Virus record (IMG/VR): IMGVR_UViG_3300011444_000011
Location: 1 to 64,000 of that record
DNA: 64,000 nucleotides
Direction: 5' to 3' (one strand)
Source: a virus
Taxonomy: Duplodnaviria > Caudoviricetes
The first letter of the stretch is position 1, and every line of letters starts with the position of its first letter. Under the pieces are notes generated by a model that saw only the letters and a list, made by a program, of their open reading frames with translations, ran no database searches and was not told the DNA's origin. A program made the translations under genes and the position numbers. Below, piece by piece: positions 1,569-63,825 of the stretch.

Positions 1569-1645
1569 GTTTTGATACCAGTATCAACCTTGAATATCTT
1601 TCCAATATCAAATCAATTTGACTCCGCGACCGGCATACGGTCCCG

Positions 1646-1974
1646 ACATATAGGATAGTCCCAAACCGGAATTTTCCGGCAAAACTTACCGATTTATTTT
1701 GGGCAGGTCGCTAAGGTCATACGGCGCAACGGGTTACTACTTTGACTTACAACTCTTTATATTTAAGGTATAGGAAACCAGAAAAGAGAGAAGAAAAGAG
1801 AGTACCATAAGGGCGTACCTGTAAATGAGTGGTGGTAAGGGAAACAGTCAGCCCGACGGCCCGACCGTCGGCCCGTTCACTGCTTTGTTACCGCGCCCGC
1901 GCGAAGCAAACCGCGTGCCAAAAATTCCTAAAATTCCCCGCCGAAATTTGCCAGTTTGGGACTATTCTATATGT
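1646..1974. promoter_or_regulatory. Divergent promoter region with a 34-bp imperfect inverted repeat (core TTTGGGACTATYCTATATGT)
   Basis: 1646-1679 (minus, facing the primase) is nearly the reverse complement of 1941-1974 (plus, facing ParB). The same core recurs at about 61217-61230. Confidence 0.6.
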
Positions 1975-2072
1975 AGCGGTTGCACACTGCCATAGGTAGT
2001 CCCCTGATTTGATATTCGCAAATTTGCCTAGTTTGATACCAGTATCACAAACACTTCTGGAGTTCATTGAAG

Positions 2073-3053
2073 ATGTCAAACGCTGACAAAAAGCTCGACC
2101 TTCGTAACATTTCGATTTCCGATATCAGGGAGAACCCTGTTGCCCTCCGCGGTGTTGACCGCGAGAGCGACAAGTACAAGTCGGTTCGCGACAGCATCGC
2201 GGCCCGCGGCATCTTGCAGCCGATCAACGTCCGCGAGAAGAATGACCCGGATGGCAAGGTGTACTACGAGGTCGTGGACGGCCTGCAACGGTACAGTTGC
2301 GCCAAGGATGTCGGCCTGACGACGATTGGCGTCAGTGTGATTTCCGCATCAGACGCGGAAGTGCTCGAAACGCAGATCATCACCAACCTGTGCCGCGTTG
2401 ACACGAAGCCGGTGGAATTCACCAAGCAGCTTCAGCGCATGATCGTGATGAATCCGACGATGACCTTGTCGGAAATCGCCGAGCGCGTCAATCAGTCGCC
2501 CGCGTGGGTTACGGGCCGGTTGAGCCTGCTGAAACTGGACGCGAAAATCCAGGAATCGGTGGACGCCGGTGATATCAACGTCAGCAACGCCCAGGCGTTG
2601 TCGAAGTTGCCGAAAGAGGAACAGTTCAACTTCCTCGAACAGGCCATGCAGTTGCAGCCCGGCGAATTTCTGCCGATCGTGCAGAACCGCGTCAAGGAAC
2701 TCCGCGACGCTGCCAAGACCGGACAGGCTGCCGGCGAAACCCAGTTCGTTCCGACCTCGCACTTGCGCGGGAAGAAAGACCTGGAAGCCGAAATGGCGTC
2801 TCCCGCCGTCGGCCCGGCCATGTGCTCTGCGCTCGGTCTGACGACCGCTGCCCAGGGTTTCGCGGCTGCGATCAAGTTCGTGCTGTCGCGTGACGCGGAC
2901 TCGGAAGCGGCCCAGAAGGCCAAGTACGATGCCCGTGCCGCCGAACGTGCGGAAGCGAAGCAGAAGCGCGAAATCGAGCGTGCCGAGAAGAAGGCTGCCG
3001 AAGCGTCGGCCAACGCGGCCAAAGTCAAGGAAGCCGCAGGCGTCACCGCCTAA
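2073..3053 (+). CDS. parB: ParB/Spo0J-family protein 1 (ParB-N + HTH + Ala/Lys-rich coiled coil), with degenerate CTPase motifs
   Basis: SIAARGILQPINVR...VVDGLQRY...IITNLCR, followed by HTH TLSEIAERVNQSPAWVTGRLSLLKL. GGAG RBS upstream. Confidence 0.88.
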   Translation: MSNADKKLDLRNISISDIRENPVALRGVDRESDKYKSVRDSIAARGILQPINVREKNDPDGKVYYEVVDGLQRYSCAKDVGLTTIGVSVISASDAEVLETQIITNLCRVDTKPVEFTKQLQRMIVMNPTMTLSEIAERVNQSPAWVTGRLSLLKLDAKIQESVDAGDINVSNAQALSKLPKEEQFNFLEQAMQLQPGEFLPIVQNRVKELRDAAKTGQAAGETQFVPTSHLRGKKDLEAEMASPAVGPAMCSALGLTTAAQGFAAAIKFVLSRDADSEAAQKAKYDARAAERAEAKQKREIERAEKKAAEASANAAKVKEAAGVTA

Positions 3054-3089
3054 GTCTGATTTGAACATCAGATCGAAACGGTAAATAAC

Positions 3090-3129
3090 CGGCACCGTTT
3101 TGATATCAGTATCAAAACGGTGCCGTTTT
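3090..3129 (+). terminator. Hairpin/terminator with the dispersed palindrome at its apex
   Basis: CGGCACCGTTTTGATA-TCAG-TATCAAAACGGTGCCG followed by TTTT, directly after ParB1. Confidence 0.6.
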
Positions 3130-3157
3130 CATTCACTTTCACCAGAGAACCAAAAAC

Positions 3158-3892
3158 ATGGATTCGCCACAGATTAACGACCCTGAACTCATTGCACGTT
3201 CGCAGGACGCCGCATACGACAACGATCTCATTTCTGTTGACGCTGCCGGCGGCGACCTCATGCCGCAGATGGACGAGAAGCAGCTTGCTGCGGTTTCGTC
3301 CAGCGGTGATTTCCTTCCTCGTCTCCAACTCTTCGGCGGCAACTCCGATGCCTGCAAGAAGGGTCAAATTCAGATCGCCCATTACGGTCTTGTGACCGGC
3401 AAGGATACGATCGAAGACATGGGCAAGGAAGTTGATATCATCGTCATTTGCGGACGGCCGAAAGCCCTTCGCATTTGTGACGATGGCACCATCATCACCA
3501 AGTTTGATCCGAACGACGACGAGTTCAAGAAGATCATGGAAGACTCGAACGTCGCTGACTCCGGCTGTATGTACGGCCCGGAATTCATGGTGTTCGTGCC
3601 TGATGTTCAACGCTTCGCCACGTTCTTCATGTCGTCGAAGACCGCTCGCCGCTCCGCCGCCTCTGTCCACGCTCGATTGCGTAAGGCAGCCACGCTGAAG
3701 GCCGAGTTCATCGAGACGAAGAAGTATTCGTGGCACGGCCCCGTTTGCGTCCCGTGCTCCAGCCCAATGTCGGCTCCGAGCAACGAGGACATTGCAGCCG
3801 CGGTGAAGAAATTCACGTCGGCGAAAGAATCGTCCGTCGAGACAGTTGCAGCACCCGCCGGTGGCGATGCCGCAACCGCTCGCGCACGGTAA
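3158..3892 (+). CDS. Putative ssDNA-binding/replication protein
   Basis: Acidic N-terminus, LPRLQL motif, beta-rich core and position in the replication module. Family resemblance only. Confidence 0.4.
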   Translation: MDSPQINDPELIARSQDAAYDNDLISVDAAGGDLMPQMDEKQLAAVSSSGDFLPRLQLFGGNSDACKKGQIQIAHYGLVTGKDTIEDMGKEVDIIVICGRPKALRICDDGTIITKFDPNDDEFKKIMEDSNVADSGCMYGPEFMVFVPDVQRFATFFMSSKTARRSAASVHARLRKAATLKAEFIETKKYSWHGPVCVPCSSPMSAPSNEDIAAAVKKFTSAKESSVETVAAPAGGDAATARAR

Positions 3893-3991: not shown

Positions 3992-3996
3992 TGTTT

Positions 3997-4069
3997 GGTG
4001 GGGATAGCTTAACGGTAAAGCACTGGCACTGATAACGCCAGAGTCTAAGGTTCGACTCCTGCCCTGCCT
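3997..4069 (+). tRNA. Degenerate tRNA-like gene (possible Ile-GAT; 19-nt anticodon arm)
   Basis: D arm TAGCTTAACGGTAAAGC, anticodon arm CTGGC-ACTGATAAC-GCCAG, T loop GGTTCGACTCC. T and acceptor stems are imperfect. Confidence 0.55.
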
Positions 4070-4154
4070 CTTTGACCCTTCGTACTAAACGCAAGAAATA
4101 CACCGGGCCTATGTCCCGGAAATGATGTATCGCAATCATCAGGGTCATGCCACA

Positions 4155-8559: not shown

Positions 8560-8599
8560 AACTCTTTTGATATCAGTATCAACTTCCGAGGAATGAACC

Positions 8600-9460
8600 A
8601 TGACCCAGCCCGTCGCTCCTACAACGGGAATGCTCGTTCTCGACATTCCGATGGCGCGTATCTACTGTGACAGTAATTTCAACTGTCGCGGTGCGATCCG
8701 GCCATTTGATGTCGCTGATCTTGCAACGTCAATCCGGGATCAAGGATTACAATTCGCTATCAGTGTGCAACCTGCGGCGGATGTCCAGGGCGGTTTGCCA
8801 GTGAATCAAGAGGATGGCTTGCCATACGAGTATCGTATCGTGGCAGGTCATCGCCGGTACACAGCAGTCAAAGTGCTGAAGTGGGCCACGATTCCTTGCA
8901 CCGTCCGCGAGAACCTTGACGAAAAGAAGGCTCGTATCCTTAATCTCGTTGAGAATTTCCAGCGACAAGACTTGAATATCCTTCAAGAAGCGGAAGCACT
9001 CAAGCACCTGCACGAAGCAGGCGTGCCCCGCGAAACTGTCGCCCGCGAAATTGGTATGAGCGGCGGCTGGGTACAGGTTCGTTTTAATCTGCTCAATCTG
9101 CCGATCGAGATTCAGCAAGAGGCGGCTGCTGGGATGATTACCCAGTACCACATCAAGACGTTGTGTACTTTGAAGTCGCCGGAAGCACAGTACGAAGCTG
9201 TGCGTAAAATCAAAGAGGCCAAGCTGAAAGGCGAGAAGGCTCCGACTATCGGCGTCAGGAAGGCGAAGACCGCCACCATCAAGAAGAAGAGAACCGAGTC
9301 TGAAATGTTTGATATGATTGAGATTCTGGCGCAGACAACGCTGGGATATGGCATCCATACACGGGTTCTTGCATGGGCCGCAGGGGAAATTTCGTCGGCG
9401 GAATTCTTCTGCGATATCAAGAAAGCGGACCCGACGTTCTTTCCGCCGCCGGAATTTTGA
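8600..9460 (+). CDS. parB: ParB/Spo0J-family protein 2 (canonical CTPase motifs + HTH)
   Basis: LATSIRDQGL...IVAGHRRY...LVENFQRQDL, then HTH RETVAREIGMSGGWVQVRFNLLNLP. Confidence 0.92.
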   Translation: MTQPVAPTTGMLVLDIPMARIYCDSNFNCRGAIRPFDVADLATSIRDQGLQFAISVQPAADVQGGLPVNQEDGLPYEYRIVAGHRRYTAVKVLKWATIPCTVRENLDEKKARILNLVENFQRQDLNILQEAEALKHLHEAGVPRETVAREIGMSGGWVQVRFNLLNLPIEIQQEAAAGMITQYHIKTLCTLKSPEAQYEAVRKIKEAKLKGEKAPTIGVRKAKTATIKKKRTESEMFDMIEILAQTTLGYGIHTRVLAWAAGEISSAEFFCDIKKADPTFFPPPEF

Positions 9461-9468
9461 GGAACCTA

Positions 9469-13262: not shown

Positions 13263-13581
13263 AGAGAAGATCAGATTCCGGTGCGGTCAACTCCGCGCCG
13301 TGCATCGGATTTCCGAAACGAAAGACTTCGCCAATGCGTTTGCTAAAGCGAATGAGGAACAACGGGCGAAACTGATACTGATATCAAATGCGAAAGATAT
13401 GCGTGTCTGGATGGCAATGGCGAACAACCAGCCTCTTGCGGCGCTTAGTTATCGTAAATTGCGGGATATGGCCAAGTCTGAAAACGTGTTCAACTACAGC
13501 AGGCTGACTCGTGACGAGATCATCGCTGCACTGGAGCAACGTCGTGCAAGAAGCGTGGAAACAAGTACAAGACCTCATTGA
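13234..13581 (+). CDS. Protein with C-terminal Rho-N-like (HeH) nucleic-acid-binding domain
   Basis: LAALSYRKLRDMAKSENVFNYSRLTRDEIIAAL. Confidence 0.6.
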   Translation: MLPTPLEAVREKIRFRCGQLRAVHRISETKDFANAFAKANEEQRAKLILISNAKDMRVWMAMANNQPLAALSYRKLRDMAKSENVFNYSRLTRDEIIAALEQRRARSVETSTRPH

Positions 13582-14055: not shown

Positions 14056-14553
14056 ATGCCAAAACCGTCCAGTCCCTCGAATCAGTTATCAGCAATCTTG
14101 GCCTCGCCCTCTGCCGGCTTAAAGCTGACCAACGAGACAATAGCTAAGTACGGACTCGAACCGACCTTTCGTGGGACGGTCGAGAATCCGACGGTTACTG
14201 TCAAAGGGAACAGTCATCCTTGCGGGGACGAGATTGAGTTTCAAATCTTATTCAAGATGGGCAAGTTTCAGCCCTACATCGCCGACATTGCCCACAACGG
14301 GCACGCTTGTTGCTTAACGACAGCGGTCGCCGACGTACTGTGCTGGAACCTTGTCGATCGCGGCCTGGACCGTTTGATATCAATATCAAGAAGCGATGTG
14401 ATTGATCCGGGTCTCGAAGTTAAGACGAACCGGGAAGGCTGCATCCGACTTCCGCTTGATCTGATAAGGCAACTGTATGAAAACGCCAAAGCTCTACGAC
14501 CAGAAGGGACCGGAGTGGACAATCCAGCAAAACTTAATCAAGTTCATGATTGA
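14056..14553 (+). CDS. IscU/SufU (NifU-N)-like Fe-S scaffold protein
   Basis: GNSHPCGDEI, GHACCLTTA and REGCIRL match the three conserved Cys motifs. Confidence 0.7.
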   Translation: MPKPSSPSNQLSAILASPSAGLKLTNETIAKYGLEPTFRGTVENPTVTVKGNSHPCGDEIEFQILFKMGKFQPYIADIAHNGHACCLTTAVADVLCWNLVDRGLDRLISISRSDVIDPGLEVKTNREGCIRLPLDLIRQLYENAKALRPEGTGVDNPAKLNQVHD

Positions 14554-16326: not shown

Positions 16327-16409
16327 TAGGTTCCTGTGATTGAGGCCGGGCGCTCCCTTTCCAGCCCCGGCCTCTCACGGCTTTTGATACCAGTATCAAC
16401 GGAGCAACC

Positions 16410-16733: not shown

Positions 16734-17240
16734 GTGCGGTTAATCGAAAGCCCAAATAAGTTCTCCTGCCTACCTTGTTCGTTTGCAATGGTACTTGAGA
16801 TCAGCCTTAGCGAAATGTTGGGAAGGATCGGACATAACGGCGATGAGATCATTTGGCCTCACTTACCGGAACCTCAGCGACGGCGTGCATTCCACATACA
16901 GGAATGCGCGGCCGTCGCTTTTTCGTTAGGCTTCGGTGTCATGGAATTCCAGTTTGGGCCTACGTTGACGCCTGACGGGAAATCCGTGTATGACGTGCCA
17001 GTGAATGTCAATATCCGAGAATTGATGTCAGTATCAAATGGCGTGCTCATGGGTCGCGGACGCCAACATGGACACGCTGTCGGTTGGGATGGGAAGCACG
17101 TTCACGACCCGCTAGGCATCATTTATGATATTGAAAATCAAAACCTATTTGCCCCTTTCAGTTATTTCCTAATATCAAATCAATTTTCGCACTTCGGATT
17201 TGCAAAATCTCCAGTATCAAATCAAAATGAAAAATCTTGA
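16734..17240 (+). CDS. Papain-like (C39-like) cysteine peptidase
   Basis: SCLPCSFAMV (Cys), GHAVGWDG (His), HDP (Asp). Confidence 0.55.
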   Translation: MRLIESPNKFSCLPCSFAMVLEISLSEMLGRIGHNGDEIIWPHLPEPQRRRAFHIQECAAVAFSLGFGVMEFQFGPTLTPDGKSVYDVPVNVNIRELMSVSNGVLMGRGRQHGHAVGWDGKHVHDPLGIIYDIENQNLFAPFSYFLISNQFSHFGFAKSPVSNQNEKS

Positions 17241-17710
17241 AAATCTTTTTGGAATACCTCTTGTATTAGCGCGTCGCGCTTGACCGCGTGTTGACCTGTC
17301 GAATATACTGGTAGATGATCGGAAAGCGCCGCGCGCATTCGATCAGCCCGACCGTCGGCCCGACCTGCCCTATACCTCATATATGGGCGCAATCGGCCCG
17401 ACGGAACGGCCAGACGGAACGGCCAATTTACAACGAATGTAGATGCGTTGATACGTCGGCCAATTTGATTTGATATTGGCAATTTGATTGATACTGGTAT
17501 CAGAATGATACTGCTATCAAGACTCTGATTTCCGCATCAGCCCGATAAGCAGAGCGAACGCAAGAAGCGCGACGCCTCGGGATTGTGGCGGAACCCCACA
17601 AGTATGTATATTCGCCGCAACCGGCGTTTTTCCCGCATGGATCGTTTCCATTCCACTTTTCAAGAAAGCGAGGTTTGATACCAATATCAATTTGTTGATA
17701 TGATGGATCG
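17241..17710 (+). promoter_or_regulatory. Regulatory intergenic region
   Basis: TTGACC-18-TATACT near 17280, ACGGAACGGCCA x2, palindrome sites at 17488, 17505 (variant) and 17675, and an AATTTGATTTGATAT element. Confidence 0.5.
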
Positions 17711-17921
17711 TTGAGCCATGAAACATTTATGGGCGTTTCAATGCCAAGACATTCCGACATTCAGCAAGCGAGGAAAGAAACGACGTGCCGTAGACCATCG
17801 GCGGTCACGTCGAGTGAGAGAGAAGAACAACCGAGTGGCAAATACACACGATGCCACGGTTGCGGTGGATTAGTTATCAAACCCTGTCTTCTTTGTAGAC
17901 TGATAGCAATGGAGTCCTAAT

Positions 17922-18149
17922 ATGACCATCGACATGAAAGCGAAACTCGAAGGGGTTGCAATATCAAAGGCGAACTCATTCCGCCCGCATCATCCTGAAA
18001 AGCAACGCAAGAGTCGTAGGCGATATGGACAGAAGCAGGGGAACCTTCCGAAGAACAAAAAGACTTTGAAGTTTGCCCCGCCAGAAGCTCCTGTAGTCCC
18101 TGACTTCATGAGGGAGATTCTTGCGAGATACGTTAGTACGCCTTTCTGA
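17922..18149 (+). CDS. Small basic hypothetical protein
   Basis: GGAG RBS, K/R-rich. Confidence 0.5.
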   Translation: MTIDMKAKLEGVAISKANSFRPHHPEKQRKSRRRYGQKQGNLPKNKKTLKFAPPEAPVVPDFMREILARYVSTPF

Positions 18150-18756
18150 AGAACGAATTGCGATACTGATATCAAAGTTGCCTGACAAGGAAGCCAGGGA
18201 TGAACTGGTCGTCGGGCATTTGAGACTTGGAAAGTATTTAGTGGGCCGCGTCCGCCGACAATACGGCGGTGACTCGGGCGATTTGCTGGGTGCTGCGACA
18301 CTGACGCTCATTAAGTGCGTCGATCGTCTGGCTTCCGGGGATAAGGTGTTAAGTGATGGCAATATCAGTCGGTGGCTAACGATTGAAATGATTGGTGCAA
18401 TGCGGGCAGAAATATGCAACAGTGCATTAGTCAGAATACCGAAAGCTACCTTGCTCCGGCACGTTGCCGCGGGCTCCCGAATGGGAATGACTCGCCTTGA
18501 CTTAACGGATGCCGTACTAGGTTCGGTGTCTAACCCGAAGCGATACGAGGATCAAGACCGTGCAGAAATGGAACGTCTTGATAGGGTCAAAAGCATTCTT
18601 AAAACCGATCTGGAGCACAAGGTCTTTGATCTGAGATATCAAGGTCTGAGTGATACAGAAATTGGCGATTTGATTGGAATGAATCCTCGATCTGTTTTTC
18701 GCATCCGCGAAGACATTGGCAAACGCTTTATGGAGAGTGAGAATAATGGTGAATAG
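18121..18756 (+). CDS. Sigma-70-family RNA polymerase sigma factor (phage)
   Basis: Region 2 ARDELVVGHLRL...DLLGAATLTLIKCVDR, LVRIP, and region 4 EHKVFDLRYQGLSDTEIGDLIGMNPRSV. Confidence 0.78.
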   Translation: MRDTLVRLSEERIAILISKLPDKEARDELVVGHLRLGKYLVGRVRRQYGGDSGDLLGAATLTLIKCVDRLASGDKVLSDGNISRWLTIEMIGAMRAEICNSALVRIPKATLLRHVAAGSRMGMTRLDLTDAVLGSVSNPKRYEDQDRAEMERLDRVKSILKTDLEHKVFDLRYQGLSDTEIGDLIGMNPRSVFRIREDIGKRFMESENNGE

Positions 18757-20021: not shown

Positions 20022-20049
20022 GCCCGGTTGATATCAGTATCAACCGGGC
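20022..20049 (+). terminator. Hairpin with the dispersed palindrome at its apex
   Basis: GCCCGGTTGATATCAGTATCAACCGGGC just after a stop codon. No strong U tract. Confidence 0.45.
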
Positions 20050-20499: not shown

Positions 20500-20528
20500 T
20501 TTGATACCAATATCAATCTGGAGCAAAC

Positions 20529-25014: not shown

Positions 25015-25645
25015 ATGCTCTGATTGCGGCGGCAGCGGTAAGTATCAGCCTCTGATCGGCCCACCTGAAAACTGCACCAAATGCGGCGGCAGCGGAAATG
25101 ATACTGGTATCAATGTTGGCCCGATTGATGCCCAGTGGTTGAACCTGACATTGTCCACCAAGAATCATGCTGGCGTGCAGGTTGGTCAGTGGTACGTCTG
25201 GGGACGGGACTACAACAAGCCAATCCAGATTTGGGATGAAGTCGATGTACGATTTGACGACTTCAGGCTGCTGGCCGTTGATACCCGGCACTGTCAAGGT
25301 ATGCCGCATGATGAACAGCAGAAACAGATGAAGATGATCTTTCAGGATGATCGGCCAGACGAATTCAGTCTGCTTCAAAAGATTGAAGCTGATAATAGAA
25401 TCAATCATGTGTTTCCGCCTACCATCTTCGTCGGCCCGAGGATTCAATTCTTCATACCTGACGGCCACCACGTTGCTTTCAATCATGTGTATACGGCTAC
25501 CAGCCGTAAAGCGTTCTGTGGCGATATGCACGGTCCTGGTCCGATGATGCGTGGTATCCGAGGCCAGAAATGGCGACTCGGAAGTACCCAAGTCTCGACC
25601 CCGAAATACTCGTGGTACGCTCCAACAGTGAAAGAACTCCCATAA
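25007..25645 (+). CDS. Hypothetical protein with N-terminal CxxCxGxG-PLxGP zinc finger
   Basis: CSDCGGSGKYQPLIGPPENCTKCGGSG. Confidence 0.65.
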   Translation: MPKCSDCGGSGKYQPLIGPPENCTKCGGSGNDTGINVGPIDAQWLNLTLSTKNHAGVQVGQWYVWGRDYNKPIQIWDEVDVRFDDFRLLAVDTRHCQGMPHDEQQKQMKMIFQDDRPDEFSLLQKIEADNRINHVFPPTIFVGPRIQFFIPDGHHVAFNHVYTATSRKAFCGDMHGPGPMMRGIRGQKWRLGSTQVSTPKYSWYAPTVKELP

Positions 25646-35981: not shown

Positions 35982-36113
35982 AATGACTGATACTGATATC
36001 AATATCCTTCCATTCCATATCCCATCACCCCGTGACGACTGCGATCACAGCGAACAGGATGCCGACAGCTTCCACCACGTTTGTCTGATCTGCGGCGTAG
36101 AATGGTACGAGCT

Positions 36114-46120: not shown

Positions 46121-46495
46121 GTGATAGTTCACAAGAATTGCCGAATCGCTTTCGGCTGCACACGGATTGTGATACTGGTATCAAAATGGGCAATCAAGAT
46201 ACCGTCGTTCTACTCCTGGCGGCTGTTCTTGCTGGGCTTGCTGGCCAACATGCAAGAGGCACAGTTCAGCAAGACGGGCTGGCCGGAGCTATGCCCAGTA
46301 AGTTGGTCGCTTTGGGGCGGCTGGCTCGTAATTATGAAACGGGCTGAAGTGCTATCCGAAACAGATTTCTGGATACACAAACTTCGACTCAAAATGATGG
46401 TCAATCAACCCGATTACGTTGTGCCTTGCGAAATGAAGCACGACAGTTTCGGCATCCTAGACGGCAAGTTTGTTGTCGTCGATTACGGGAATTGA
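46121..46495 (+). CDS. Conserved phage protein, possibly a minimal kinase-like fold
   Basis: GCTRIV...AIKIP...NMQE...FGILDGKFVVVDYG. Confidence 0.45.
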   Translation: MIVHKNCRIAFGCTRIVILVSKWAIKIPSFYSWRLFLLGLLANMQEAQFSKTGWPELCPVSWSLWGGWLVIMKRAEVLSETDFWIHKLRLKMMVNQPDYVVPCEMKHDSFGILDGKFVVVDYGN

Positions 46496-49707: not shown

Positions 49708-49913
49708 CGCCAGACAGAGTAGCTGCCAGACGTAACGTAATCTATGCTCCGCATGGCGGCGTCGATGAACAGAAGCAGCAGTTGCTTGAGTTTTACGAGG
49801 CCGTGCTGACCGAAATCTCTGATGGTACGCCCGATGCCAAGAATCTGGCATCCGCGGCGTTGGGCAAGTTACCAAAGTGGACCGTTTCTGATACTGGTAT
49901 CAAACCATGCTAG
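49704..49913 (+). CDS. Hypothetical protein, paralog family B
   Basis: LLEFYEAVLTEISDGTPDAKNLASAALG. Confidence 0.6.
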   Translation: MTPDRVAARRNVIYAPHGGVDEQKQQLLEFYEAVLTEISDGTPDAKNLASAALGKLPKWTVSDTGIKPC

Positions 49914-51043: not shown

Positions 51044-51339
51044 GCTTGGTTGATACCAGTATCAATGATAAGGTCTGGCAACGGATGATTAGCGCCAAGC
51101 ACAAATGGACGGTGTCTCATGTGCTCGTGGTGGCCAGATCAGTGAATCTGGAATCCGAGCATCCAGTTGGTGTCCCTGAATTGATCGCTGTAGCCAAACA
51201 GGTAATGGAAAGGTATCATAATGAGAGACCCCAATGAGCTACCGTCGGTTGCTGAACTCATAGCCTTCGGCCTCTTAGGGCTGGCGTGCATAGTCTTGTT
51301 CATCATGCTCACAAAGGCCATCATCGAAAGGGCAGGATT

Positions 51340-51618
51340 ATGAAAATCTCACCATCTGATATCCGCACCAGAGATCATTTCTGGGATACGTTCGATAAGA
51401 ACGAGATCGAATGCGCGGCCCGCAACATCGTCATCGCTTCCCAGAAGAAGGGTGATTGGTTCGATTTCACGGAAGATGATATTAACATCGGACCTTGGGG
51501 CAACTTCTTCGTGGTCAACGGGTACTTGTCGCGAGTAGGCAAGACGAAATATCGCGTGCTCCCCGAGTTCGTGATGAAACTAAGCAAATATCTAAAGAAG
51601 GGAGTCATCAGTGTCTAA
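51340..51618 (+). CDS. Hypothetical protein
   Basis: AGGA RBS. Confidence 0.6.
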   Translation: MKISPSDIRTRDHFWDTFDKNEIECAARNIVIASQKKGDWFDFTEDDINIGPWGNFFVVNGYLSRVGKTKYRVLPEFVMKLSKYLKKGVISV

Positions 51619-52342
51619 TACGATTTGGCACGGCGATTGCGTCAAGTTTGTTCATCAGTTGAGGCCGGTCAAGTGCATCATCGCTGATCCGCCGGACAAT
51701 CTCGATTTGGGGTATGACGGCTTTACAGACTTCAACCCCGATTACTACGGGTGGCTTGGTTCCCTGATCCGGGCATCCGTCGAGCGGTGCGACCATTTCT
51801 GGTTGAGCTATTATCACGCTCACGACCTCGCAATATCGAGCATTGTCTACGATGTTGTACGCCGGAAGGGACTGGACTGGCACAAGTACCTTTGGCGGTT
51901 CACGTTCGGCCAGCATAAGGAAACTGATTGTGGGAGCGGTTACAGAACAATCCTCAGATTATCGCAGCCTTCGCAGCCGCTTAATACATCAGCGGTTCGG
52001 GTGCCCAGCCTGCGACAGACGTTATACAACGACCCACGAGCTAATCCGGCAGGAAGGGTTCCAGACGATGTCTGGGAGTTCCCGCGTGTTACCGGCAACA
52101 GCCATGAACGAAGAGCATGGCATCCGACGCAGCATCCCGTAGCCGTGTACTCCCGGATACTGCGGCTGTCAACGGCACCGGGCGATAAGGTGGTGGACCT
52201 GTTCGCGGGCACGGGCACACTTTTCAGAGCGAACCACTCATACAAGCTCTCGGAACGACGGGAATGCTCGGCAGTTGATATCAGTATCAAATACTGCCAG
52301 GAGATCGCTAAGGAACATCAACTGGAGATCAAGACCATTTGA
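51611..52342 (+). CDS. N4-C/N6-A DNA methyltransferase (beta class) with variant catalytic motif DPPD
   Basis: IWHGDC, IIADPPDN, DVWEF, HPTQHP, VVDLFAGTGT. Confidence 0.82.
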   Translation: MSNTIWHGDCVKFVHQLRPVKCIIADPPDNLDLGYDGFTDFNPDYYGWLGSLIRASVERCDHFWLSYYHAHDLAISSIVYDVVRRKGLDWHKYLWRFTFGQHKETDCGSGYRTILRLSQPSQPLNTSAVRVPSLRQTLYNDPRANPAGRVPDDVWEFPRVTGNSHERRAWHPTQHPVAVYSRILRLSTAPGDKVVDLFAGTGTLFRANHSYKLSERRECSAVDISIKYCQEIAKEHQLEIKTI

Positions 52343-52773: not shown

Positions 52774-53282
52774 TGGAAGCAATAGGACGACGTGATTTCT
52801 TCAAGATGAGTGCTTGCGCCGGAGCGATCCTAATACCGGGCCTACATCTGTTGGCAGCCGAGCACCACATTCCCTACCAACTGGGAGTGTGGAATAAGGA
52901 AGAGTGTATCCGGGTTCCGGTTCGTGCTCTTGCCAATGATTGGGGACACGTTGTTGCCCTCGCTGATATTGCCATCAGAGACGCCAAGACGTGGGTAGGG
53001 GCGTGCCTGCTTCGGAACGACGATTCGATTCTCGCAGCAGCACCGTTCAGCAGCACGGTTGCCGTCATAAATGGCGACACCATCAAACTGTCCTACGCGA
53101 TCAACTGGCCAGAATGTGCTGACAGGCGGGAATGGAACAGGATTGTAGGTGGTCTGTCCAAGTCCCGCCGGTTGCAACGAGGATTCGAGCCATCAGTTGT
53201 CAGCGGCACCGGCCCTCACCTGGAGCTTTCAGACTACGACAACATGGCTTTGAGGGCACCCAGATTACCTACACGGCAATAG
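52773..53282 (+). CDS. Hypothetical protein with a Tat-like signal
   Basis: GRRDFFKMSACAGAILIP. Confidence 0.6.
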   Translation: MEAIGRRDFFKMSACAGAILIPGLHLLAAEHHIPYQLGVWNKEECIRVPVRALANDWGHVVALADIAIRDAKTWVGACLLRNDDSILAAAPFSSTVAVINGDTIKLSYAINWPECADRREWNRIVGGLSKSRRLQRGFEPSVVSGTGPHLELSDYDNMALRAPRLPTRQ

Positions 53283-53322
53283 TGGTCTACCTACACTAAA
53301 GATGCGCTTGACCACCCCAAAC

Positions 53323-53380
53323 AGCGCTTAGGTCCGAATAGCGATTAGGTCCGAATAGCGCTTAGGTCCGAATAGCGCTT
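53323..53380. repeat. 17-bp tandem repeat AGCGMTTAGGTCCGAAT, three full copies plus a partial (iteron-like)
   Basis: Copies at 53323, 53340, 53357 and a partial at 53374. Confidence 0.9.
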
Positions 53381-53390
53381 GGCAAGTTTC

Positions 53391-53934
53391 TGATATCAAT
53401 TCCTGCTGACACTTTTGTGACAACTTTGTGAGCCTATTACCGCCCCAACCAAGCGTCGCCACTTTGAGGCGAAGGCTCGGCCGGAAAGCAGTAAGCGATC
53501 GTCAGGCAAGAGGCTGGCAGCCCTTGCAATGCCTCTAGCGTCGGGACTCCGTCGAACTTACCGGAGGCTTCCGAAGGGGTGAAAGTGGTAAGTCGTTTCA
53601 GGATAAGGGGTTAGGGACTCCGCGCGACTGGAATACCAAAAACTGATTCGCCCATGCTCCCTTATGGAATACTCTCTCTTTATTCTCTTTTACTTTTCCT
53701 ATACCTTTAATTTAGAGAGTAAGTAGATAGAAAAGAGTCAAACCGTTGCCTGATAAGGGGTTAAGTGCTTACCCATTTGTTCGCTGGTCAGTCAGAAACA
53801 GTCTGCCGGCGATGCAAGTCGTTATCGTGAAACGGGTTCCAGTCGGTCGGGGTGTCAGCAAAAGGGTAAGCGGTTCGGGCCTCGCGGCTTGCTGACATAA
53901 TTTGTCACAAAAGTGTCAGCAAGAATTGATATCA
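53391..53934. repeat. Segment bounded by 33-bp inverted repeats TGATATCAATTCYTGCTGACACTTTTGTGACAA
   Basis: 53391-53423 versus 53902-53934, one mismatch. Interior is non-coding. Confidence 0.85.
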
Positions 53935-54226
53935 ACATCAAAGCCCTAGTCTTAGCGCTATTCAATTGTTAAAGGGAAGTTTCATGAATGGAAATTCATA
54001 TACCCACATTTCAAGGGGCTTGTGTGCCCGCGTTATATATTGATTTCTCCAGTGCCCTGCGGGTGGAAAAGGGCGGGTTGTAACGATTATAACGATTGTA
54101 ATGGTTTTGGCGGTCCTGCCGGTTGTGCTTAATTTGCGGATCATCCGGCTTATTACGAATTTGCCGGTCGCTCCGATTGTGCCGTGATTCCGCAAATCAA
54201 CGCCCTGCTGCCATTATGGCACGCCA

Positions 54227-54311
54227 GCCGCAAACCGTTGCCAGATAACGAGTTAAACGCATAAGTCAATTCTTATGCGACATAACTCGTTGCCTGACCA
54301 CGGTTTGCGGC
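54227..54311. repeat. 85-bp imperfect palindrome
   Basis: GCCGCAAACCGT..AACGAGTTA..CGCATAAG / CTTATGCG..TAACTCGTT..ACGGTTTGCGGC. Confidence 0.8.
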
Positions 54312-54552
54312 GTTTTCGTTTCACCTTATATATGCAATCGTGGTCCGGTTATAACGATTGTAACGTGTAAAGAAAATGAAACACTGTACACAACAAAATG
54401 ATTCAAATTGTGAACACTCCGGCCCGACCTGCCCGCGTGCCATTCGCTGCAAGTGCTTACGCTGTAACGAGTTATGGCAATTCCGAAATTTCTTGCCAGT
54501 TTCGGCACGCCGTTCGCTCTTTACTCGTTTCGGAATTGTTCTCAATTCGGCC

Positions 54553-54580
54553 TTGACTTGCCGGAACCGTGAGATACAAT
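54553..54580 (+). promoter_or_regulatory. Sigma70-type promoter upstream of ParB3
   Basis: TTGACT-16-TACAAT. Confidence 0.6.
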
Positions 54581-54679
54581 TTACCAGACGGCCAAACGTC
54601 GGCCCGTCAATTCGGCCAATTTGATTTGATACTGTCGAATTTGCTGATTTTCAATATCAAGTATCGGGAGAAACGAGTT

Positions 54680-55846
54680 ATGTCAAAGGTCGATATCGAC
54701 GCCCCGTTGATGCCTGACGTTGACCTGTCCACCGCGGCGGGACAAGCGCAGGCCGTTACGTTTTACCATGATGCCGTTCAAGGGTTGAACGCATCGGGTA
54801 AGAATCAGCGCCTTCCGGTCGCTGATTTGACAATCAATCCCGACAATCCCCGCGAGGAATACGACGTTGACGGAATGATCGCATCTTTCCGCCACCGTGG
54901 TTTCGTCATCGGTGCGCCGATTACGATTTCCAAGCGCGCCGACGGCGTCAACATGGTTTTGCGTGGCAATCGTCGCGTGTCTGCCGCGCAGAAGTTCGCC
55001 ACGGTTGACCCGGAAGGGTTCAAGAAAGTCTTTCCCGATGGAAAGATTCCCTGTCTGGTCTTGACCGATCTTTCCCGCGCCGAAGAAACGACGGTCTTGA
55101 TTGACCACGGGAAAGAGCAAGACCGACGGAAACTGTCGGCCCGCGAGGAACTCCGCGCCATTCGCCAGTTGATGAAAGCTGGCATTAAGGGGCGCGATGC
55201 AATCGCCCGCGCTCTTGACCTGATTACGGTATCAAAAGACGATAAAGGGGTTGAAACGGAGAAAGTTCGTTCGTCTTACGTTCAACCGCGCCTCAATTTG
55301 CTTGCCTTGCCGGAAGCCGTGCAAGTCAAGTACATCGGCGAATCGTCGATGTTCGGCGGGAAAAATGCTGTTCTGAAACAGCAGACAATCGCGCCGCTGT
55401 ACACTGCCCTGTCAAACGACAGGAAGGCCGGAAACATCGGTCAAGACGGTTTCGGGCCGGAACTCCGCGCCGCGTGGGATACCCTCTTGGCAACGCCCAC
55501 AACGCCCGCCAGTGATGCGCCCGTCAAGTATATCGCTGATAGCAAGTGCAAAGCGCTCTTGCAGGAATGCGACAGCGCCGCCCTGACGAATGCCCTGACC
55601 TATTTCGGCGGTTACAGCAAAACGCTGAAACTGTCGGAAATCGACAGCGCCTGTCAGGCCGCGGAGCAAGCGCAAGTCATGCTGGCGCACATTGCCGATT
55701 TTGTCGGCCCTGACGAATTTGCCAGCCTGTGCGAAAAGGCCGATTCTGCGGCCCGTGCCAAAGCTGACGCCTTGAAGGCTTCTGCCGGTCCTGCCGACGG
55801 AACCGAAAAGGTCGAATCGACCGAAAAGGTCGAAGTCAACGCCTAG
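54680..55846 (+). CDS. ParB-like protein 3 (first gene of the putative early region)
   Basis: LPVADLTINPDNPR...SFRHRGF...PITIS...VLRGNRRVSAA, then a helical/HTH-like region ending RLNLLALPEAVQ. GGGAG RBS. Confidence 0.8.
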   Translation: MSKVDIDAPLMPDVDLSTAAGQAQAVTFYHDAVQGLNASGKNQRLPVADLTINPDNPREEYDVDGMIASFRHRGFVIGAPITISKRADGVNMVLRGNRRVSAAQKFATVDPEGFKKVFPDGKIPCLVLTDLSRAEETTVLIDHGKEQDRRKLSAREELRAIRQLMKAGIKGRDAIARALDLITVSKDDKGVETEKVRSSYVQPRLNLLALPEAVQVKYIGESSMFGGKNAVLKQQTIAPLYTALSNDRKAGNIGQDGFGPELRAAWDTLLATPTTPASDAPVKYIADSKCKALLQECDSAALTNALTYFGGYSKTLKLSEIDSACQAAEQAQVMLAHIADFVGPDEFASLCEKADSAARAKADALKASAGPADGTEKVESTEKVEVNA

Positions 55847-56020: not shown

Positions 56021-56278
56021 ATGATTAACGGAAGTTGCGAGCGTACCAATAACGTCAAGGGCGCATTCTTTAACTGTCGTGACAACGGCGTCAAGGCGAA
56101 CGCTTTTGACGATAAGAGCGAATCGCTCGCCTGCGCCGTCGCTGCCGTCCTGCCTGATTCTGATACTGGTATCAAATTCGCCGAATTGTGCAACGAATTG
56201 GAATCGGGCGATTTTACGCCGGATATGCAAATTGAGGCAATCATCGAATTTGCCTACCTGACCGCCAATGAGGAATAG
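56021..56278 (+). CDS. Hypothetical protein
   Basis: GGAG RBS. Confidence 0.55.
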   Translation: MINGSCERTNNVKGAFFNCRDNGVKANAFDDKSESLACAVAAVLPDSDTGIKFAELCNELESGDFTPDMQIEAIIEFAYLTANEE

Positions 56279-56624: not shown

Positions 56625-56858
56625 CGTTTGCAAAGCTCGAAGTAGGTATGCTGTTTGTAGCGATCAAAGTGATTCCCTGTGATGTGCGGGGTGAGCGGAT
56701 TGCAGACAATGCGCGGCTTTGGCGGAAAGTAACGGATACGCGGGCTGTGCAGGCTATGTGCTTTGAACCGCTTATATGGGATAAGCTGGACGTGACGTTT
56801 GATCCGTCTTATCGCATTATAGCGATACTCCCCGGTTGATACCAATATCAGAAAGGAA

Positions 56859-57137: not shown

Positions 57138-57230
57138 CTTTGCCCGAAAGCGCTGCAATAGTTGATTGTAGCGCTTAGGGGCGCTTAACAGCGCTTGACC
57201 TGATACCAGTATCAACAGGGAGCTAGTCGA

Positions 57231-57506: not shown

Positions 57507-57941
57507 ATGCGTTGGAACATGATTCTGCCGATTTTACTGTCAATGGTCGTCGGCCATTTATTCACTCCGGTCGTCAGGGGTGATGAAATCGTCAAGGCCG
57601 GCGAAATCGCCAAAGTTGATACCAATATCAACACGGGCGCAACCGTCACAACGTACAAAAGCGGGCACAAAATAACGATTACGCCCGGCCCTGCCGGTTG
57701 TGCCGACGATTCCGATTGTGAGGTTTTGTTCGGAGTTAAGATTCCTAACGCCCCTGTCAATTCTGTCGGTGCTTACGAAACGTCGCAAAATGCCATTCTT
57801 GCCAAGAGTATGGCCTACAACGCTTCTGTCAGGAAACATCAGGAAGCCATGGCGCGTATTCGTGCGGCGTCTAGCGGTAGTAACGGGCGTAACGGCAATG
57901 GCACGCGGACCCGGCTCAATCTGAATTATCGGCTCAATTGA
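57507..57941 (+). CDS. Secreted hypothetical protein
   Basis: Signal peptide-like MRWNMILPILLSMVVG. Confidence 0.55.
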   Translation: MRWNMILPILLSMVVGHLFTPVVRGDEIVKAGEIAKVDTNINTGATVTTYKSGHKITITPGPAGCADDSDCEVLFGVKIPNAPVNSVGAYETSQNAILAKSMAYNASVRKHQEAMARIRAASSGSNGRNGNGTRTRLNLNYRLN

Positions 57942-58387: not shown

Positions 58388-58471
58388 CCTGGGCCGACTT
58401 TAACGGTCGAAGCGGTGGAACCGCTTCTTCCGTTAGTGCCGATTCTGATACCAATATCAAAGGAACCGATT

Positions 58472-61062: not shown

Positions 61063-61319
61063 AAGATACTGATATCAATATCGCTGACACTTTGATACTG
61101 ATATCAACTCGCACTTTTGATATTGATATCAAACCAGGGTGGGGTTAAATTGATATTAGCATCTGGCATCCGCTGACACTATTGTGACAAAATAATCTTT
61201 CGCCGAATTCCAGAATTTTGGGACTATTCTCTGTGCAGACGGTGCTCAACACTACCATTCGGAACCTAACGATGCTGACGGTTTTTGTCATAAAAGTGTC
61301 AGCGGATGTTAATATCAAT
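61063..61319. promoter_or_regulatory. Cluster of palindrome sites plus a 26-bp inverted repeat upstream of the putative TerS
   Basis: Sites at 61063 (variant), 61092 and 61117. IR CATCCGCTGACACTWTTRTGACAAAA at 61167-61192 / 61283-61308 encloses TTTGGGACTATTCT. Confidence 0.7.
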
Positions 61320-61339
61320 CAGAGTTCTGGGGATGCGAC

Positions 61340-61981
61340 ATGGAAAATACATGGGAACGGGTCAAAGAGCCCGACGATCCACGTCGCTGCCAAGCGGTCG
61401 TAGCACACGGGCAGTGTCTGAACGTGAGTTGCGAGAATTCTGAATACTGTTTGGCCCACGGCGGGCGTCATGGTGCGACGAAGGCCAAAGCCGAAGCCAA
61501 TCGAATGTACAGTCTTGGCAAATGGCGTCAGGCCGTAAGCAAGTTCCAAGACCACGACCAGTTAAAGTCATTGCGGGAAGAAATCGGCTTATTGAGAGTC
61601 ATGATCGACGAACGCATGAATCTGTGCAACGATGCACAAGAACTCATGATGTACTCCGGCCCGTTGTCGGATATGATTATGAAGGTCGAGAAGCTGGTCA
61701 CTTCCTGCAATAAGATCGAGACCCACCTTGCCGGTGTGCTCGATAAGACACAAGCTCTGCAACTGGGACAAGAGATGGTCGAGATTATCGGCCGGCATCT
61801 TGATACCGTTGCGGACAAAGATTTGTTGATTTCCAAAATCAGTTCTGCAATTGAGGACAACCCGGATGTGCTCGACGCGATCGCCGATGCACTAGCGGAC
61901 TGCAAGAGCAAAGAAGACGTGTTGGAGGGAATCTCAAATGATATCATTGCAACGGTGGAAAGACTTGGCAAAACCGGGTAG
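61340..61981 (+). CDS. Putative terminase small subunit (HGGxSTG-like zinc domain)
   Basis: RCQA...C...CLAHGG followed by LREEIGLLR helices. Confidence 0.55.
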   Translation: MENTWERVKEPDDPRRCQAVVAHGQCLNVSCENSEYCLAHGGRHGATKAKAEANRMYSLGKWRQAVSKFQDHDQLKSLREEIGLLRVMIDERMNLCNDAQELMMYSGPLSDMIMKVEKLVTSCNKIETHLAGVLDKTQALQLGQEMVEIIGRHLDTVADKDLLISKISSAIEDNPDVLDAIADALADCKSKEDVLEGISNDIIATVERLGKTG

Positions 61982-62528
61982 CATCGTGGGGTTCAGCGGA
62001 GCAGACCTGCCTTCCGATATCATCAACGTGATGACGGGAGCGTGGCCTCGGTGGGGTCTGAGTCATGTCGGCATGTTGGCCGAGCGTGACAATGACCTGC
62101 TTCTGTTTGAATCGACCACCTTCAACCATAACCCTTGTGTCATCCAGAAGAAGATGTTCTCTGGTACGCAAGCCCAGCACCCGCTGGATAAGATTCAAAC
62201 CTACAATGGCCGTGTCTGGATTTATCAGCCACGGATCAATCTGCGGGAGTGGGAGAAAAGGAATCTCTCACACTACCTGATGAACACCATCGGGATCAAG
62301 TACGATATGATCGGAGCATTACGGTCGGGTGGTCACTTGTTCAACTGGATGGAGTCCAAGTTGCACGGTGAGAACCTGGCTCGCATCTTCTGTTCGGAGT
62401 GGTGTGTCGCAGCGTACAACAGTATTGAACGCTTCGATACCGACGACGACAGCCGATGGAACCCAAACAAGTTCATTCGGGAGTGCAAGGTCAGGGCCAT
62501 TCATCTCAAGCCGGTGAGGGTCAAATGA
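61938..62528 (+). CDS. Permuted papain-like amidase (YaeF/YiiX, permuted NlpC/P60)
   Basis: PGSIV...SHVGM...YD...FCSEWC..AY...P (His precedes Cys). Confidence 0.78.
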   Translation: MISLQRWKDLAKPGSIVGFSGADLPSDIINVMTGAWPRWGLSHVGMLAERDNDLLLFESTTFNHNPCVIQKKMFSGTQAQHPLDKIQTYNGRVWIYQPRINLREWEKRNLSHYLMNTIGIKYDMIGALRSGGHLFNWMESKLHGENLARIFCSEWCVAAYNSIERFDTDDDSRWNPNKFIRECKVRAIHLKPVRVK

Positions 62529-63058
62529 GACTTTTGTTCTTAACTTTGATATTGGTATCAACGACTCTGGTTTCCGCTGGTGAACCACGAATCGTCCTGC
62601 CGCCGAACATCCGACAGAACAACTGGGTTGGTAGCGAAGGCGAAGGGTCATGTGTCCATGCGACCATGACAATGCTTCTTCGATACCAACGCCAGTACCG
62701 GCTTGCGGACTACTGGCGGGCCAATTACCAGAACGGTGAGACGTTTCCCGGCTTGACGACGAAGTTGGAAAAACACGGAGTCAAGTGGGCTGGAACTTAC
62801 AACGAGAATAATGTCAAGTTCCTTGAGTGGGCCATGCGTACCCGTCGCGGGTGCATGGTCACAACGCAAGGCGGCGTCCACATGATTTTGCTCGTCCATC
62901 TCGACAGTAGAGTGGCCGGGATAATTGACAACAATGATCCAGACAAAGTAATCTGGAAAACAAGAACGCAGTTCCTTGACGAGTGGTATGCCTCCAATAG
63001 CTGGGCACTTACGCCTGTCTACACACCACCGCCACCTTCTCTGAGGAGAGCGAAATGA
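62525..63058 (+). CDS. Secreted C39-like cysteine peptidase
   Basis: Signal peptide; GSCVHA, HMILLV, IDNN. Confidence 0.6.
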   Translation: MRLLFLTLILVSTTLVSAGEPRIVLPPNIRQNNWVGSEGEGSCVHATMTMLLRYQRQYRLADYWRANYQNGETFPGLTTKLEKHGVKWAGTYNENNVKFLEWAMRTRRGCMVTTQGGVHMILLVHLDSRVAGIIDNNDPDKVIWKTRTQFLDEWYASNSWALTPVYTPPPPSLRRAK

Positions 63059-63726
63059 ACAAGGCAATGATCTATGGAGTGTTGATGTTTTGTGTCGGGC
63101 TTTCGGCCGGGACGTACCACGAGTATCTGGAACTGAACCAGAAGTTCAACGACATGCCCGTCGTCGAAGCATCGGTTGAGCAGAGGATCGTCAACCTGCC
63201 TGAAGACGGAAAGCTGTACTACACGTCTCTTTTTCTGCCGGCCAATTGGCAAGCTGATCCCAAGTCGAGAGTACTGCGGGCGTGGTTTGATACCAACGTC
63301 ACTCTCTCCAGCTTGCGTAGTCAGACTCACTTCAACGTGGTCACGACTGCTGATGCCCAGTGGAAAACGAAGTATGCACCGACGGTCGGACAAGTACCTT
63401 GCTTGGCACTCACTGATGCAGCCGGCGATGTGGTCTTCAAAGCGTGCTCTGGTAACATCCCGAACGATGCAAAGGTGCTGGCTTCCGCCGTTTCGACTGC
63501 TGTCAGTCGTCGATGCCCGAATCGTCGATGCCCGACGCCCGAGCCGGTTAAGCCCGAACCGGAGCCTGTCCAGCCGGATACGGCACCTATCCTTGATACG
63601 AAAGTTCCTGATCTCACCCCGCCTGCGGAAGAGTTTCCTCTGTGGCTCGGCCTAGTTCTGGGACTCGTCGGCATCGGTGGTGCTGTGCTGCCTGATGTCG
63701 TGAAGAAGTACAAGGCCGTGGGCTGA
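63055..63726 (+). CDS. Exported/membrane protein (possible thioredoxin-like core, Pro linker, C-terminal TM)
   Basis: Hydrophobic segments at both ends; CPNRRCPTPEP linker. Confidence 0.55.
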   Translation: MNKAMIYGVLMFCVGLSAGTYHEYLELNQKFNDMPVVEASVEQRIVNLPEDGKLYYTSLFLPANWQADPKSRVLRAWFDTNVTLSSLRSQTHFNVVTTADAQWKTKYAPTVGQVPCLALTDAAGDVVFKACSGNIPNDAKVLASAVSTAVSRRCPNRRCPTPEPVKPEPEPVQPDTAPILDTKVPDLTPPAEEFPLWLGLVLGLVGIGGAVLPDVVKKYKAVG

Positions 63727-63825
63727 CATTTGATATTGATATCAACTGGAACGCCGGTGGTTCTTGACCGGGTGTAAATGGCTGTGAAACGCCTGCCAGT
63801 TTCCTTCTAACTTCGAGGAGTTACA

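Follow-up and report, generated by a model that had tools for sequence, protein, structure and literature searches.

Phages and other mobile elements very commonly carry orphan ParB proteins, whose jobs are largely unknown, and a survey of the ParB fold recorded many of them on phages without sites being assigned (PMC12704722). On the IncP plasmid RK2, the ParB-family protein KorB has 12 OB operators, TTTAGCSGCTAAA (PMC11790492, PMC13768133), and the Bacillus subtilis chromosome carries ~70 NBS sites for Noc (PMC8429893, PMC7383237). Among phages, the closest precedent is a 17-bp dyad repeat in the Cluster O mycobacteriophages, TGTTCGGNNNCCGAACA, which is present in 34 copies in Corndog and has an unknown function and an unknown binder that its authors predicted to be dimeric (PMC4351075). 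The Cluster A stoperators (L5, Bxb1) are asymmetric and are bound by the monomeric immunity repressor of a temperate phage (PMC9283540, PMC6550527). Here we describe a 16-bp near-palindrome dispersed through a tailed phage (Caudoviricetes) represented by the IMG/VR record IMGVR_UViG_3300011444_000011, referred to as G000, which is 94,423 bp long with 52% G+C and is estimated to be 97% complete. The window is the stretch from position 1 to position 64,000 of this record. Based on sequence comparisons, these palindromes are probably genome-wide docking and operator sites on double-stranded DNA for the dimer of an orphan ParB of the phage, ParB1, in a KorB- or Noc-like manner.

The arrangement resembles KorB in combining a ParB-family protein, with an N-terminal cytidine triphosphate (CTP)-binding domain and a helix-turn-helix (HTH), with a short palindrome that is dispersed on a mobile replicon and stands at the protein's own operon and at other promoters; by analogy, its role may be regulatory and not only segregational. 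It differs from KorB in having ~40 to 100 sites instead of 12, many of them intragenic, in an unrelated site sequence, in the lack of a ParA/IncC partner, and in a PDB likeness nearer to Spo0J, ParB, and Noc; no KorA-like protein was recognized among the proteins scanned. As with Noc, an orphan ParB paralogue without ParA occurs together with many dispersed 14- to 16-bp palindromes, and the ParB1 residues corresponding to 179 and 184 are basic (R, K). Unlike Noc, ParB1 lacks the catalytic Glu, and the sites belong to a phage, are unrelated to NBS, and are ~10 to 50 times denser.

The Cluster O repeats share with G000 the occurrence of more than 30 short palindromes throughout the genome of a non-temperate phage that also encodes a ParB-like protein, mostly unlinked to promoters and with an asymmetric center. 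They show no orientation bias, whereas the intergenic copies described here are polar, and sequence, host, and lineage are unrelated. Stoperators are similar in part: tens of 13- to 14-bp sites lie in short intergenic gaps, are oriented with transcription, and coevolve with a self-regulating phage DNA-binding protein; in G000, the site is instead a near-palindrome with symmetric arms and an asymmetric center that is polar in intergenic DNA, the candidate binder is a ParB, no tyrosine integrase accompanies it, and many copies are intragenic and in the other orientation. ParABS systems (chromosomal parS and the P1 and N15 prophage plasmids) have the protein family and the 16-bp palindrome size in common with the phage, which differs in having neither ParA nor a parS consensus and in dispersing 40 to 102 sites genome-wide rather than clustering them. 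With the exception of the Cluster O repeats, we found no paper describing arrays of phage palindromes together with an orphan ParB.

Abundance and placement of the palindrome

The initial annotation of the window had counted 32 exact copies of TGATAYYRRTATCA with a center that is always CA (17) or TG (15), and a recount gave the same figures, with CG or TA never occurring at the center in the window (Table 1). All 11 relaxed copies that it had listed are present; its sites were right, and its positions were one base low owing to the inclusion of a flanking T. In 100 dinucleotide-preserving shuffles, the mean number of exact copies was 0.01 and the maximum was 1. The window also contains 44 copies of TGATWYYRRWATCA and 80 of TGAT-N6-ATCA, and the whole record contains 40 exact copies and 102 of this looser core, against 5 expected, for a density across the chromosome of ~1 site per kb. 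A de novo scan for inverted 5-mers placed TGATA-N4-TATCA far ahead of all others in G000. The extended consensus is TTGATA-YCAR-TATCAA, with T at −1 in 34 and A at +14 in 29 of the 40 exact copies, and flanks beyond these 16 bp are unconserved in most of them. The two 6-bp arms, with centers 10 bp apart and a total length equal to that of parS, suit a dimeric HTH protein.

More than half of the exact copies (23 of 40) lie outside called genes, although intergenic DNA makes up 17.7% of the genome (p 2e-8). Seven intergenic copies stand directly 5′ of a Shine-Dalgarno (SD) sequence (2034, 8568, 16385, 20502, 56837, 57201, and 58446), in keeping with the placement beside ribosome-binding sites and start codons that had been noted before, and the copies at 6662 and 56837 provide the TGA stop of the upstream gene. 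Called coding sequences contain 17 exact copies, against a mean of 0.19 and a maximum of 2 in 200 synonymous-codon shuffles, and 57 relaxed-core copies, against 5.3 ± 2.5. Since this intragenic excess survives synonymous shuffling, the target of selection is the DNA, in both orientations and inside genes, rather than the peptides; selection on the DNA had been proposed before. Coding copies occupy frames 1 and 2 only, frame 0 being unused because the motif starts with TGA on both strands. GATATC occurs 98 times in G000, in part owing to the palindrome.

Lineage-specific variants across a phage family

Two points go beyond the initial annotation: the palindrome characterizes a whole phage family, and its CA/TG center has a polarity relative to transcription. 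Metagenomic homologues of ParB1 number more than 300. We examined 91 related metagenomic loci of ±10 kb (G001 and the L-numbered loci below), comprising 11 contigs obtained through exact-protein look-ups and 80 IMG/VR loci obtained with a ParB1 profile. The family shares a syntenic order of leftward primase, ParB1, Pam3_Gp34-like protein, SNF2 helicase, exonuclease, ParB2, and family A DNA polymerase (PolA).

In a blind scan for overrepresented inverted repeats, 56 of the 91 family loci (62%) had a dispersed palindrome at p<1e-6, and 40 of these reached p<1e-10, compared with 5 of 118 unrelated viral loci (4%), 2 of them at p<1e-10, so that the check in relatives suggested by the initial annotation came out in its favor. 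The palindrome differs by lineage. The (T)GATA-N4-TATC(A) variant is found in G000, L128, L129, L135, L137, and L152, and others carry GATT-N4 (many loci), GATT-N5, GATA-N5, GATG-N4 (26 to 36 copies per 13 to 21 kb), GAGT-N4, or GATTA-N1, at least seven variants in all, with spacings of N3, N4, and N5 seen among them. Changes between lineages are symmetric in both arms. Between G000 and L128/L129, which have ~72% DNA identity, about two-thirds of the alignable G000 sites are sites at orthologous positions, with the TGAT/ATCA arms kept and the inner bases drifting. Such lineage-specific variation argues, at the sequence level, against an abundant host repeat. Among the matches listed in an exact 16-mer scan of IMG/VR, there were only single chance-level ones, which is uninformative on relatives.

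Polarity of the asymmetric center

Half-site position 7 is C in 41% and T in 54% of cases, yet CG centers are absent, and CA/TG centers make up 74% of the 102 core sites. Between co-oriented genes, YCAR is found on the sense strand at 16 of 20 exact intergenic sites in G000 and at 16 of 17 intergenic sites in relatives (p 3e-4). At intragenic sites in relatives, the opposite orientation is the commoner one, 21:43 (Fisher p 5e-6). Possible sources of this polarity are a stoperator-like orientation, binding by a heterodimer, an RNA or single-strand aspect, and bias in codons and mutation. A blockwise orientation of CA and TG centers along the genome, which could have marked replication domains and was suggested by the 40 exact sites, was not reproduced in 35 relaxed sites.

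ParB-like proteins and the candidate reader

G000 encodes four ParB-like proteins (Table 1), of which ParB1 and ParB2 are full ParB_N plus HTH_ParB proteins with Pfam PF02195 and PF17762 above the cutoff. The best PDB matches of both are Spo0J, ParB, and Noc, at E 1e-19, with KorB weaker. In ParB1, box II reads DGLQRYS and box III TNLCRVD, keeping Gly/Arg and Asn and losing the catalytic Glu. No ParA was found in the 94-kb genome, with no AAA_31 or CbiA match at E≤1, an LG[KR]GL-type ParA-stimulating motif, as defined in PMC12704722, is not visible in the N terminus of ParB1 or ParB2, and canonical parS, TGTTNCACGTGAAACA, has 0 matches with ≤3 mismatches, in line with the earlier remark that the site is unlike parS. 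Without ParA and parS, the arrangement does not qualify as a ParABS partition system. A link to ParB-dependent thymine dioxygenases was considered and rejected, as G000 has no Tet_JBP domain; the ParBs of those systems lack an HTH (PMC13229309).

The placement of sites in relatives points to ParB1. Of 55 loci, 39 have the lineage's own variant ≤120 nt upstream of ParB1, and 37 have it equally close to the divergent primase gene, at a median of 9 nt from the start of the latter, compared with ~7 loci expected by site density. Rates upstream of other genes are near background: 10/36 for the Pam3_Gp34-like gene, 6/38 for a 187-amino-acid (aa) gene, 7/42 for the SNF2 helicase, 3/18 for the exonuclease, 4/32 for ParB2, and 2/28 for PolA. 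Sites kept at the starts of ParB1 and the primase are the signature of an autoregulated operator pair; as for KorB and OB, a site stands at the protein's own operon (26 nt before ParB1 in G000) and others are dispersed elsewhere.

The HTH of ParB1 is conserved except for its reading helix, SPAWVTGRLSLLKL in G000, which differs by motif class: WVxGRL with GATA, GKSTxWIxGRLSLNKL with GATG, HRSPxWLxQRF with GAGT, and ...QRL with GATT. The residue that varies most within this helix aligns with the Asn of the Spo0J "VAN," the equivalent of N178 in Caulobacter ParB, which makes contact with parS (PMC7383237). The GATA type combined with a small residue at the N178 equivalent arises in at least two separate places in the ParB1 tree, and L137 (Ser, GATA) and L132 (Gln, GATT) are sisters, which makes that switch of helix and motif independent. 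A one-residue code (Gly/Ser for GATA, Gln for GATT) fitted 13 genomes but failed once 80 more loci were added.

The dispersed site for a dimeric protein envisaged by the initial annotation is thus what all in silico tests point to (orphan ParBs, no ParA, and a negligible RNA hairpin), and ParB1 is its most probable reader. A ParB1 dimer would bind a 16-bp duplex of the TTGATACCAGTATCAA type, with ~40 strong sites (TTGATA-YCAR-TATCAA) and ~60 weaker TGAT-N6-ATCA sites in the genome. The two sites bracketing the divergent primase/ParB1 region are probably operators for autoregulation and control of the replication operon, and the remaining sites would mark the whole chromosome about once per kb, preferentially at gene boundaries. 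Once bound there, ParB1 could serve as a polar roadblock or repressor in the way of KorB and stoperators. It could also be a nucleation point for short-range spreading or for the loading of clamps, perhaps jointly with ParB2 and its canonical CTP-pocket motifs. Such a lattice could serve regulation, roadblocks, coating, or self-marking.

Several observations weigh against ParB1 as the reader. The ~3-fold enrichment of sites in intergenic DNA lifts the number of loci expected to have a site upstream of ParB1 from ~7 to ~18, and the link between helix and motif is confounded by phylogeny. Identical 16-residue ParB1 helices occur with different motifs (TGAT in L213 and TGAG in L187), as do identical helices in L139 (GATA-N5) and L131 (GATT-N4), and some clades with ParB1 homologues have no detectable palindrome (L138, L173, L203, and L205). 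Given these counterexamples and motif-less clades, other contact residues or another protein or partner must contribute. Without the catalytic Glu of box III, CTP hydrolysis by ParB1 is doubtful. An always-asymmetric, polar center cannot be sensed by a symmetric homodimer on duplex DNA, and the copies at the apex of terminator-like hairpins (see below) hint at an RNA or single-strand aspect.

The same helix pairs and motif-less clades would fit a different phage protein that reads the duplex sites, with ParB1 as just one of the genes under its control, an explanation that we consider unlikely. Candidates would be ParB2, the fourth ParB-like protein, the HTH/sigma-like protein (18121 to 18756), or a small unannotated protein; most of the ~150 genes of G000 lack annotation, and the asymmetric center could reflect a heterodimer. 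Against this, the conserved sites stand at ParB1 and its divergent partner, and the variable residue of ParB1 is at the known base-contacting position. ParB2 was rejected as the main reader: its reading helix, SGGWVQVR (S-x-G-W-V-Q-V-R), is invariant over all motif classes, and it has no conserved upstream site.

A more ambitious version of the ParB1 hypothesis, possible but on balance doubtful, is a two-ParB phage "chromatin." The fast-evolving ParB1 would read ~100 lineage-specific palindromes at which the invariant ParB2, as a CTP clamp, would be loaded or held, and both would coat or mark the chromosome as self and exert polar control of transcription or replication encoded by the CA/TG center.

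Further repeats occur near the ParB-like genes and the palindromes. A GC-rich block, GCGCCCGCGCG-AAGCAAA-CCGCGTGCCAAA (1893 to 1930), lies in the primase/ParB1 intergenic region and is kept in G001 and L132, the ParB1 proteins of which are 51 to 54% identical; this block is a possible origin element or a possible site for the invariant ParB2. A promoter-like repeat, TTTGGGACTATTCT(A/C)T(A/G)TG, forms an inverted pair in the same region (1655 to 1680 on the − strand and 1952 to 1980 on the + strand) and recurs in the 61-kb divergent region (61215 to 61240, +); G001 has an analogous inverted promoter-like pair. A direct half-site array, AATTTGATTTGATAYT, is found upstream of ParB1 (2003 to 2018), in a noncoding cluster (17462 to 17480), and upstream of the fourth ParB-like gene (54620 to 54636), and may represent a different binding mode or the site of a paralogue. 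A second repeat, GCTGACAC-TTTTGTGACAA, and its inverse (53395 to 53420, 53885 to 53925, 61080 to 61092, 61170 to 61195, and 61290 to 61310) adjoin TGATA-type sites at both edges of a ~7-kb block of small genes (53.4 to 61.3 kb).

Duplex recognition versus RNA structure

The polarity of the intergenic copies, the many copies that abut an SD sequence, and arm changes between lineages that are symmetric and so retain pairing would all be compatible with an RNA or single-strand element. In this scenario, the site would form a conserved hairpin top whose tetraloop is YCAR, and a protein would recognize it in 5′ untranslated regions (control of translation or stability) and at terminators (control of termination or antitermination). 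About eight copies cap long GC-rich palindromes just past gene ends (3101, 3971, 20029, 52276, 70015/70021, 76913, and 91262), with stems of −19 to −25 kcal/mol beneath the apex, and a minority of copies is built into terminator stems.

The bulk of the copies behave differently. As RNA, the 16-mer core by itself folds at just −1.9 kcal/mol, and no more than 2 extra complementary pairs are present in 30 of the 40 copies. Extended stems occur in only ~8 of 40 copies, so that the sites in general are not intrinsic terminators with a GC-rich stem and T tract, and in a terminator scan of 1 to 20 kb only 3090 to 3125 passes, in both directions. The Y and R positions vary independently, with nonpairing C..A combinations at the closing position at chance frequency, and degenerate copies do not keep arm complementarity. 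A weak core fold, chance-level C..A combinations, and unpaired degenerate arms indicate that a duplex recognition sequence, rather than a structure, is what has been conserved. Dozens of intragenic copies in the opposite orientation are moreover selected and positionally conserved, copies in relatives (up to 36 per 21 kb) are mostly intragenic, and no Rfam family matches the element. We therefore regard an RNA element as quite improbable.

Outside the window, at 83142 to 83190 and 83744 to 83790, a site is followed immediately by a near-identical intrinsic terminator, CCGGGCAGG-TTCG-CCTGCCCGG plus a T tract, and this terminator pair flanks a single gene of 179 aa.

Two last explanations are highly improbable. 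Footprints of a mobile or recombination element, whether like repetitive extragenic palindromes or miniature inverted-repeat transposable elements or as linkers in module shuffling, would accommodate the ~30-bp subfamily CCCGGTT-site-AACCGGG (3971, 20029, 70015, 91262, and 91972) and the frequent ending of homology between G000 and its relatives at intergenic sites, but most copies lack conserved flanks beyond 16 bp, copies lie in frame within conserved genes at orthologous positions, the ParB1/primase placement is family-wide, and no transposase or HUH-type gene is found among the proteins scanned. A host factor such as a Fur-like regulator is suggested by the TGATA/TATCA arms, which resemble Fur-type boxes (the Fur 7-1-7 box is TGATAAT-N-ATTATCA), but the spacing is one base off that box, motif bases and spacing change between related phages (GATA, GATT, GATG, and GAGT; N3, N4, and N5), and a copy is kept at the phage's own ParB1 gene.

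Genome organization

Nearly all genes of G000 are on the + strand. Genes for an RNase T-like exonuclease, a deoxynucleoside monophosphate kinase, and a DUF5906/AEP primase-helicase make up a short leftward operon that spans both record ends, and relatives have a single DUF5906 gene of 880 to 1,210 aa at the primase position; the record is thus circularly permuted or cut within the primase-helicase gene. The replication module comprises SNF2 and Dda-like helicases, an exonuclease, PolA, and a ligase. Nucleotide and protein searches of a phage collection found no close relative among cultured phages, no tyrosine integrase was found in G000, and no repressor-type gene was identified there; G000 is probably a lytic tailed phage. 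The gene directly after ParB1 encodes a product that resembles Pam3_Gp34/DUF5895 phage clusters of unknown function (Atlas feature score 0.96, TM 0.7).

GGTACC is missing from the 94 kb, where ~23 copies are expected, which suggests restriction-site avoidance. Two stretches lack a convincing open reading frame (ORF), 16760 to 17920 (1.1 kb), which is packed with full and half sites, and 53180 to 54680 (1.5 kb); these could be origins or could encode RNA.

Table 1. Exact palindrome copies and selected genes in the window
Position	Feature	Strand	Center (+ strand)	Context or description
3-1568	Primase-helicase gene, N-terminal part	−		Rest at 93240-94346; divergent from ParB1; start codon 1568
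1573-1586	Palindrome		CA	5 nt from start codon (1568) of leftward primase gene
2034-2047	Palindrome		CA	26 nt before ParB1 ATG at 2073; just ahead of SD CTGGAG
2073-3053	ParB1	+		ParB_N + HTH_ParB; candidate site reader; K/E/A-rich tail
3101-3114	Palindrome		CA	Apex of perfect 36-nt hairpin 3090-3125, then TTTTCATT; terminator-like, 3′ of ParB1
3158-3892	Pam3_Gp34-like gene			Directly after ParB1; kept throughout ParB1 phage family
3971-3984	Palindrome		CA	Apex of GCCGGTT...AACCGGC hairpin; just before tRNA-Ile (3997-4070)
8568-8581	Palindrome		CA	19 nt before ParB2 start at 8600
8600-9460	ParB2	+		ParB_N + HTH_ParB; canonical nucleotide-pocket motifs GHRRYTA and ENFQRQDLN
13373-13386	Palindrome		TG	Amid small doubtful ORFs
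14375-14388	Palindrome		CA	Intergenic
16385-16398	Palindrome		CA	Abuts SD GGAG; 12 nt before start at 16410
17489-17502	Palindrome		TG	Full/half-site cluster in 1.1-kb noncoding region 16760-17920
17676-17689	Palindrome		CA	Noncoding region 16760-17920; TTGATA half is a −35-like hexamer
18121-18756	HTH/sigma-like protein			
20029-20042	Palindrome		CA	Apex of GCCCGGT...ACCGGGC hairpin; 26 nt past gene end
20502-20515	Palindrome		CA	14 nt before start at 20529; SD GGAG next
25099-25112	Palindrome		TG	Within ORF
30686-30699	Palindrome		TG	Coding, frame 2
31221-31234	Palindrome		TG	Coding, frame 2
35988-36001	Palindrome		TG	7 nt past stop codon
38242-38255	Palindrome		TG	Coding, frame 1
38847-39308	ParB_N-only protein	+		153 aa, without HTH
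38896-38909	Palindrome		CA	In 5′ part of ParB_N-only gene
42991-43004	Palindrome		TG	Coding, 638-aa ORF
46170-46183	Palindrome		TG	Coding
49889-49902	Palindrome		TG	Coding, close to gene end
51051-51064	Palindrome		CA	Intergenic
51611-52342	N6/N4 DNA methylase gene			
52276-52289	Palindrome		CA	3′ end of N6/N4 DNA methylase gene; imperfect extended palindrome
54680-55846	Fourth, more distant ParB-like protein	+		PHROG matches only, none in Pfam
56161-56174	Palindrome		TG	Coding
56837-56850	Palindrome		CA	TGA is stop of upstream ORF; 15 nt before start at 56865
57201-57214	Palindrome		CA	Intergenic; SD-like GGGAG next
57617-57630	Palindrome		CA	Coding
58446-58459	Palindrome		CA	13 nt before start at 58472
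61093-61106	Palindrome		TG	One of three tandem copies (61070-61131), 500-bp divergent intergenic region
61118-61131	Palindrome		TG	Tandem cluster 61070-61131
62547-62560	Palindrome		TG	Coding, frame 1
63731-63744	Palindrome		TG	5 nt past stop codon

Implications

The phage family offers an orphan ParB with a testable job, that of reading a genome-wide lattice of sites. A transcription polarity of a near-symmetric site is unexpected for ParB and, if functional, would tie ParB-type proteins to stoperator-like control of elongation. As site sequence and spacing vary while the protein remains recognizable, the comparative series lends itself to studying the evolution of ParB specificity and to obtaining orthogonal ParB/site labeling pairs; if the two-ParB system is true, the family would amount to at least seven naturally occurring orthogonal ParB-site pairs, changes in half-site spacing included. 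The finding may also explain the palindromic repeats of the Cluster O mycobacteriophages, in which a ParB-like protein is likewise encoded.

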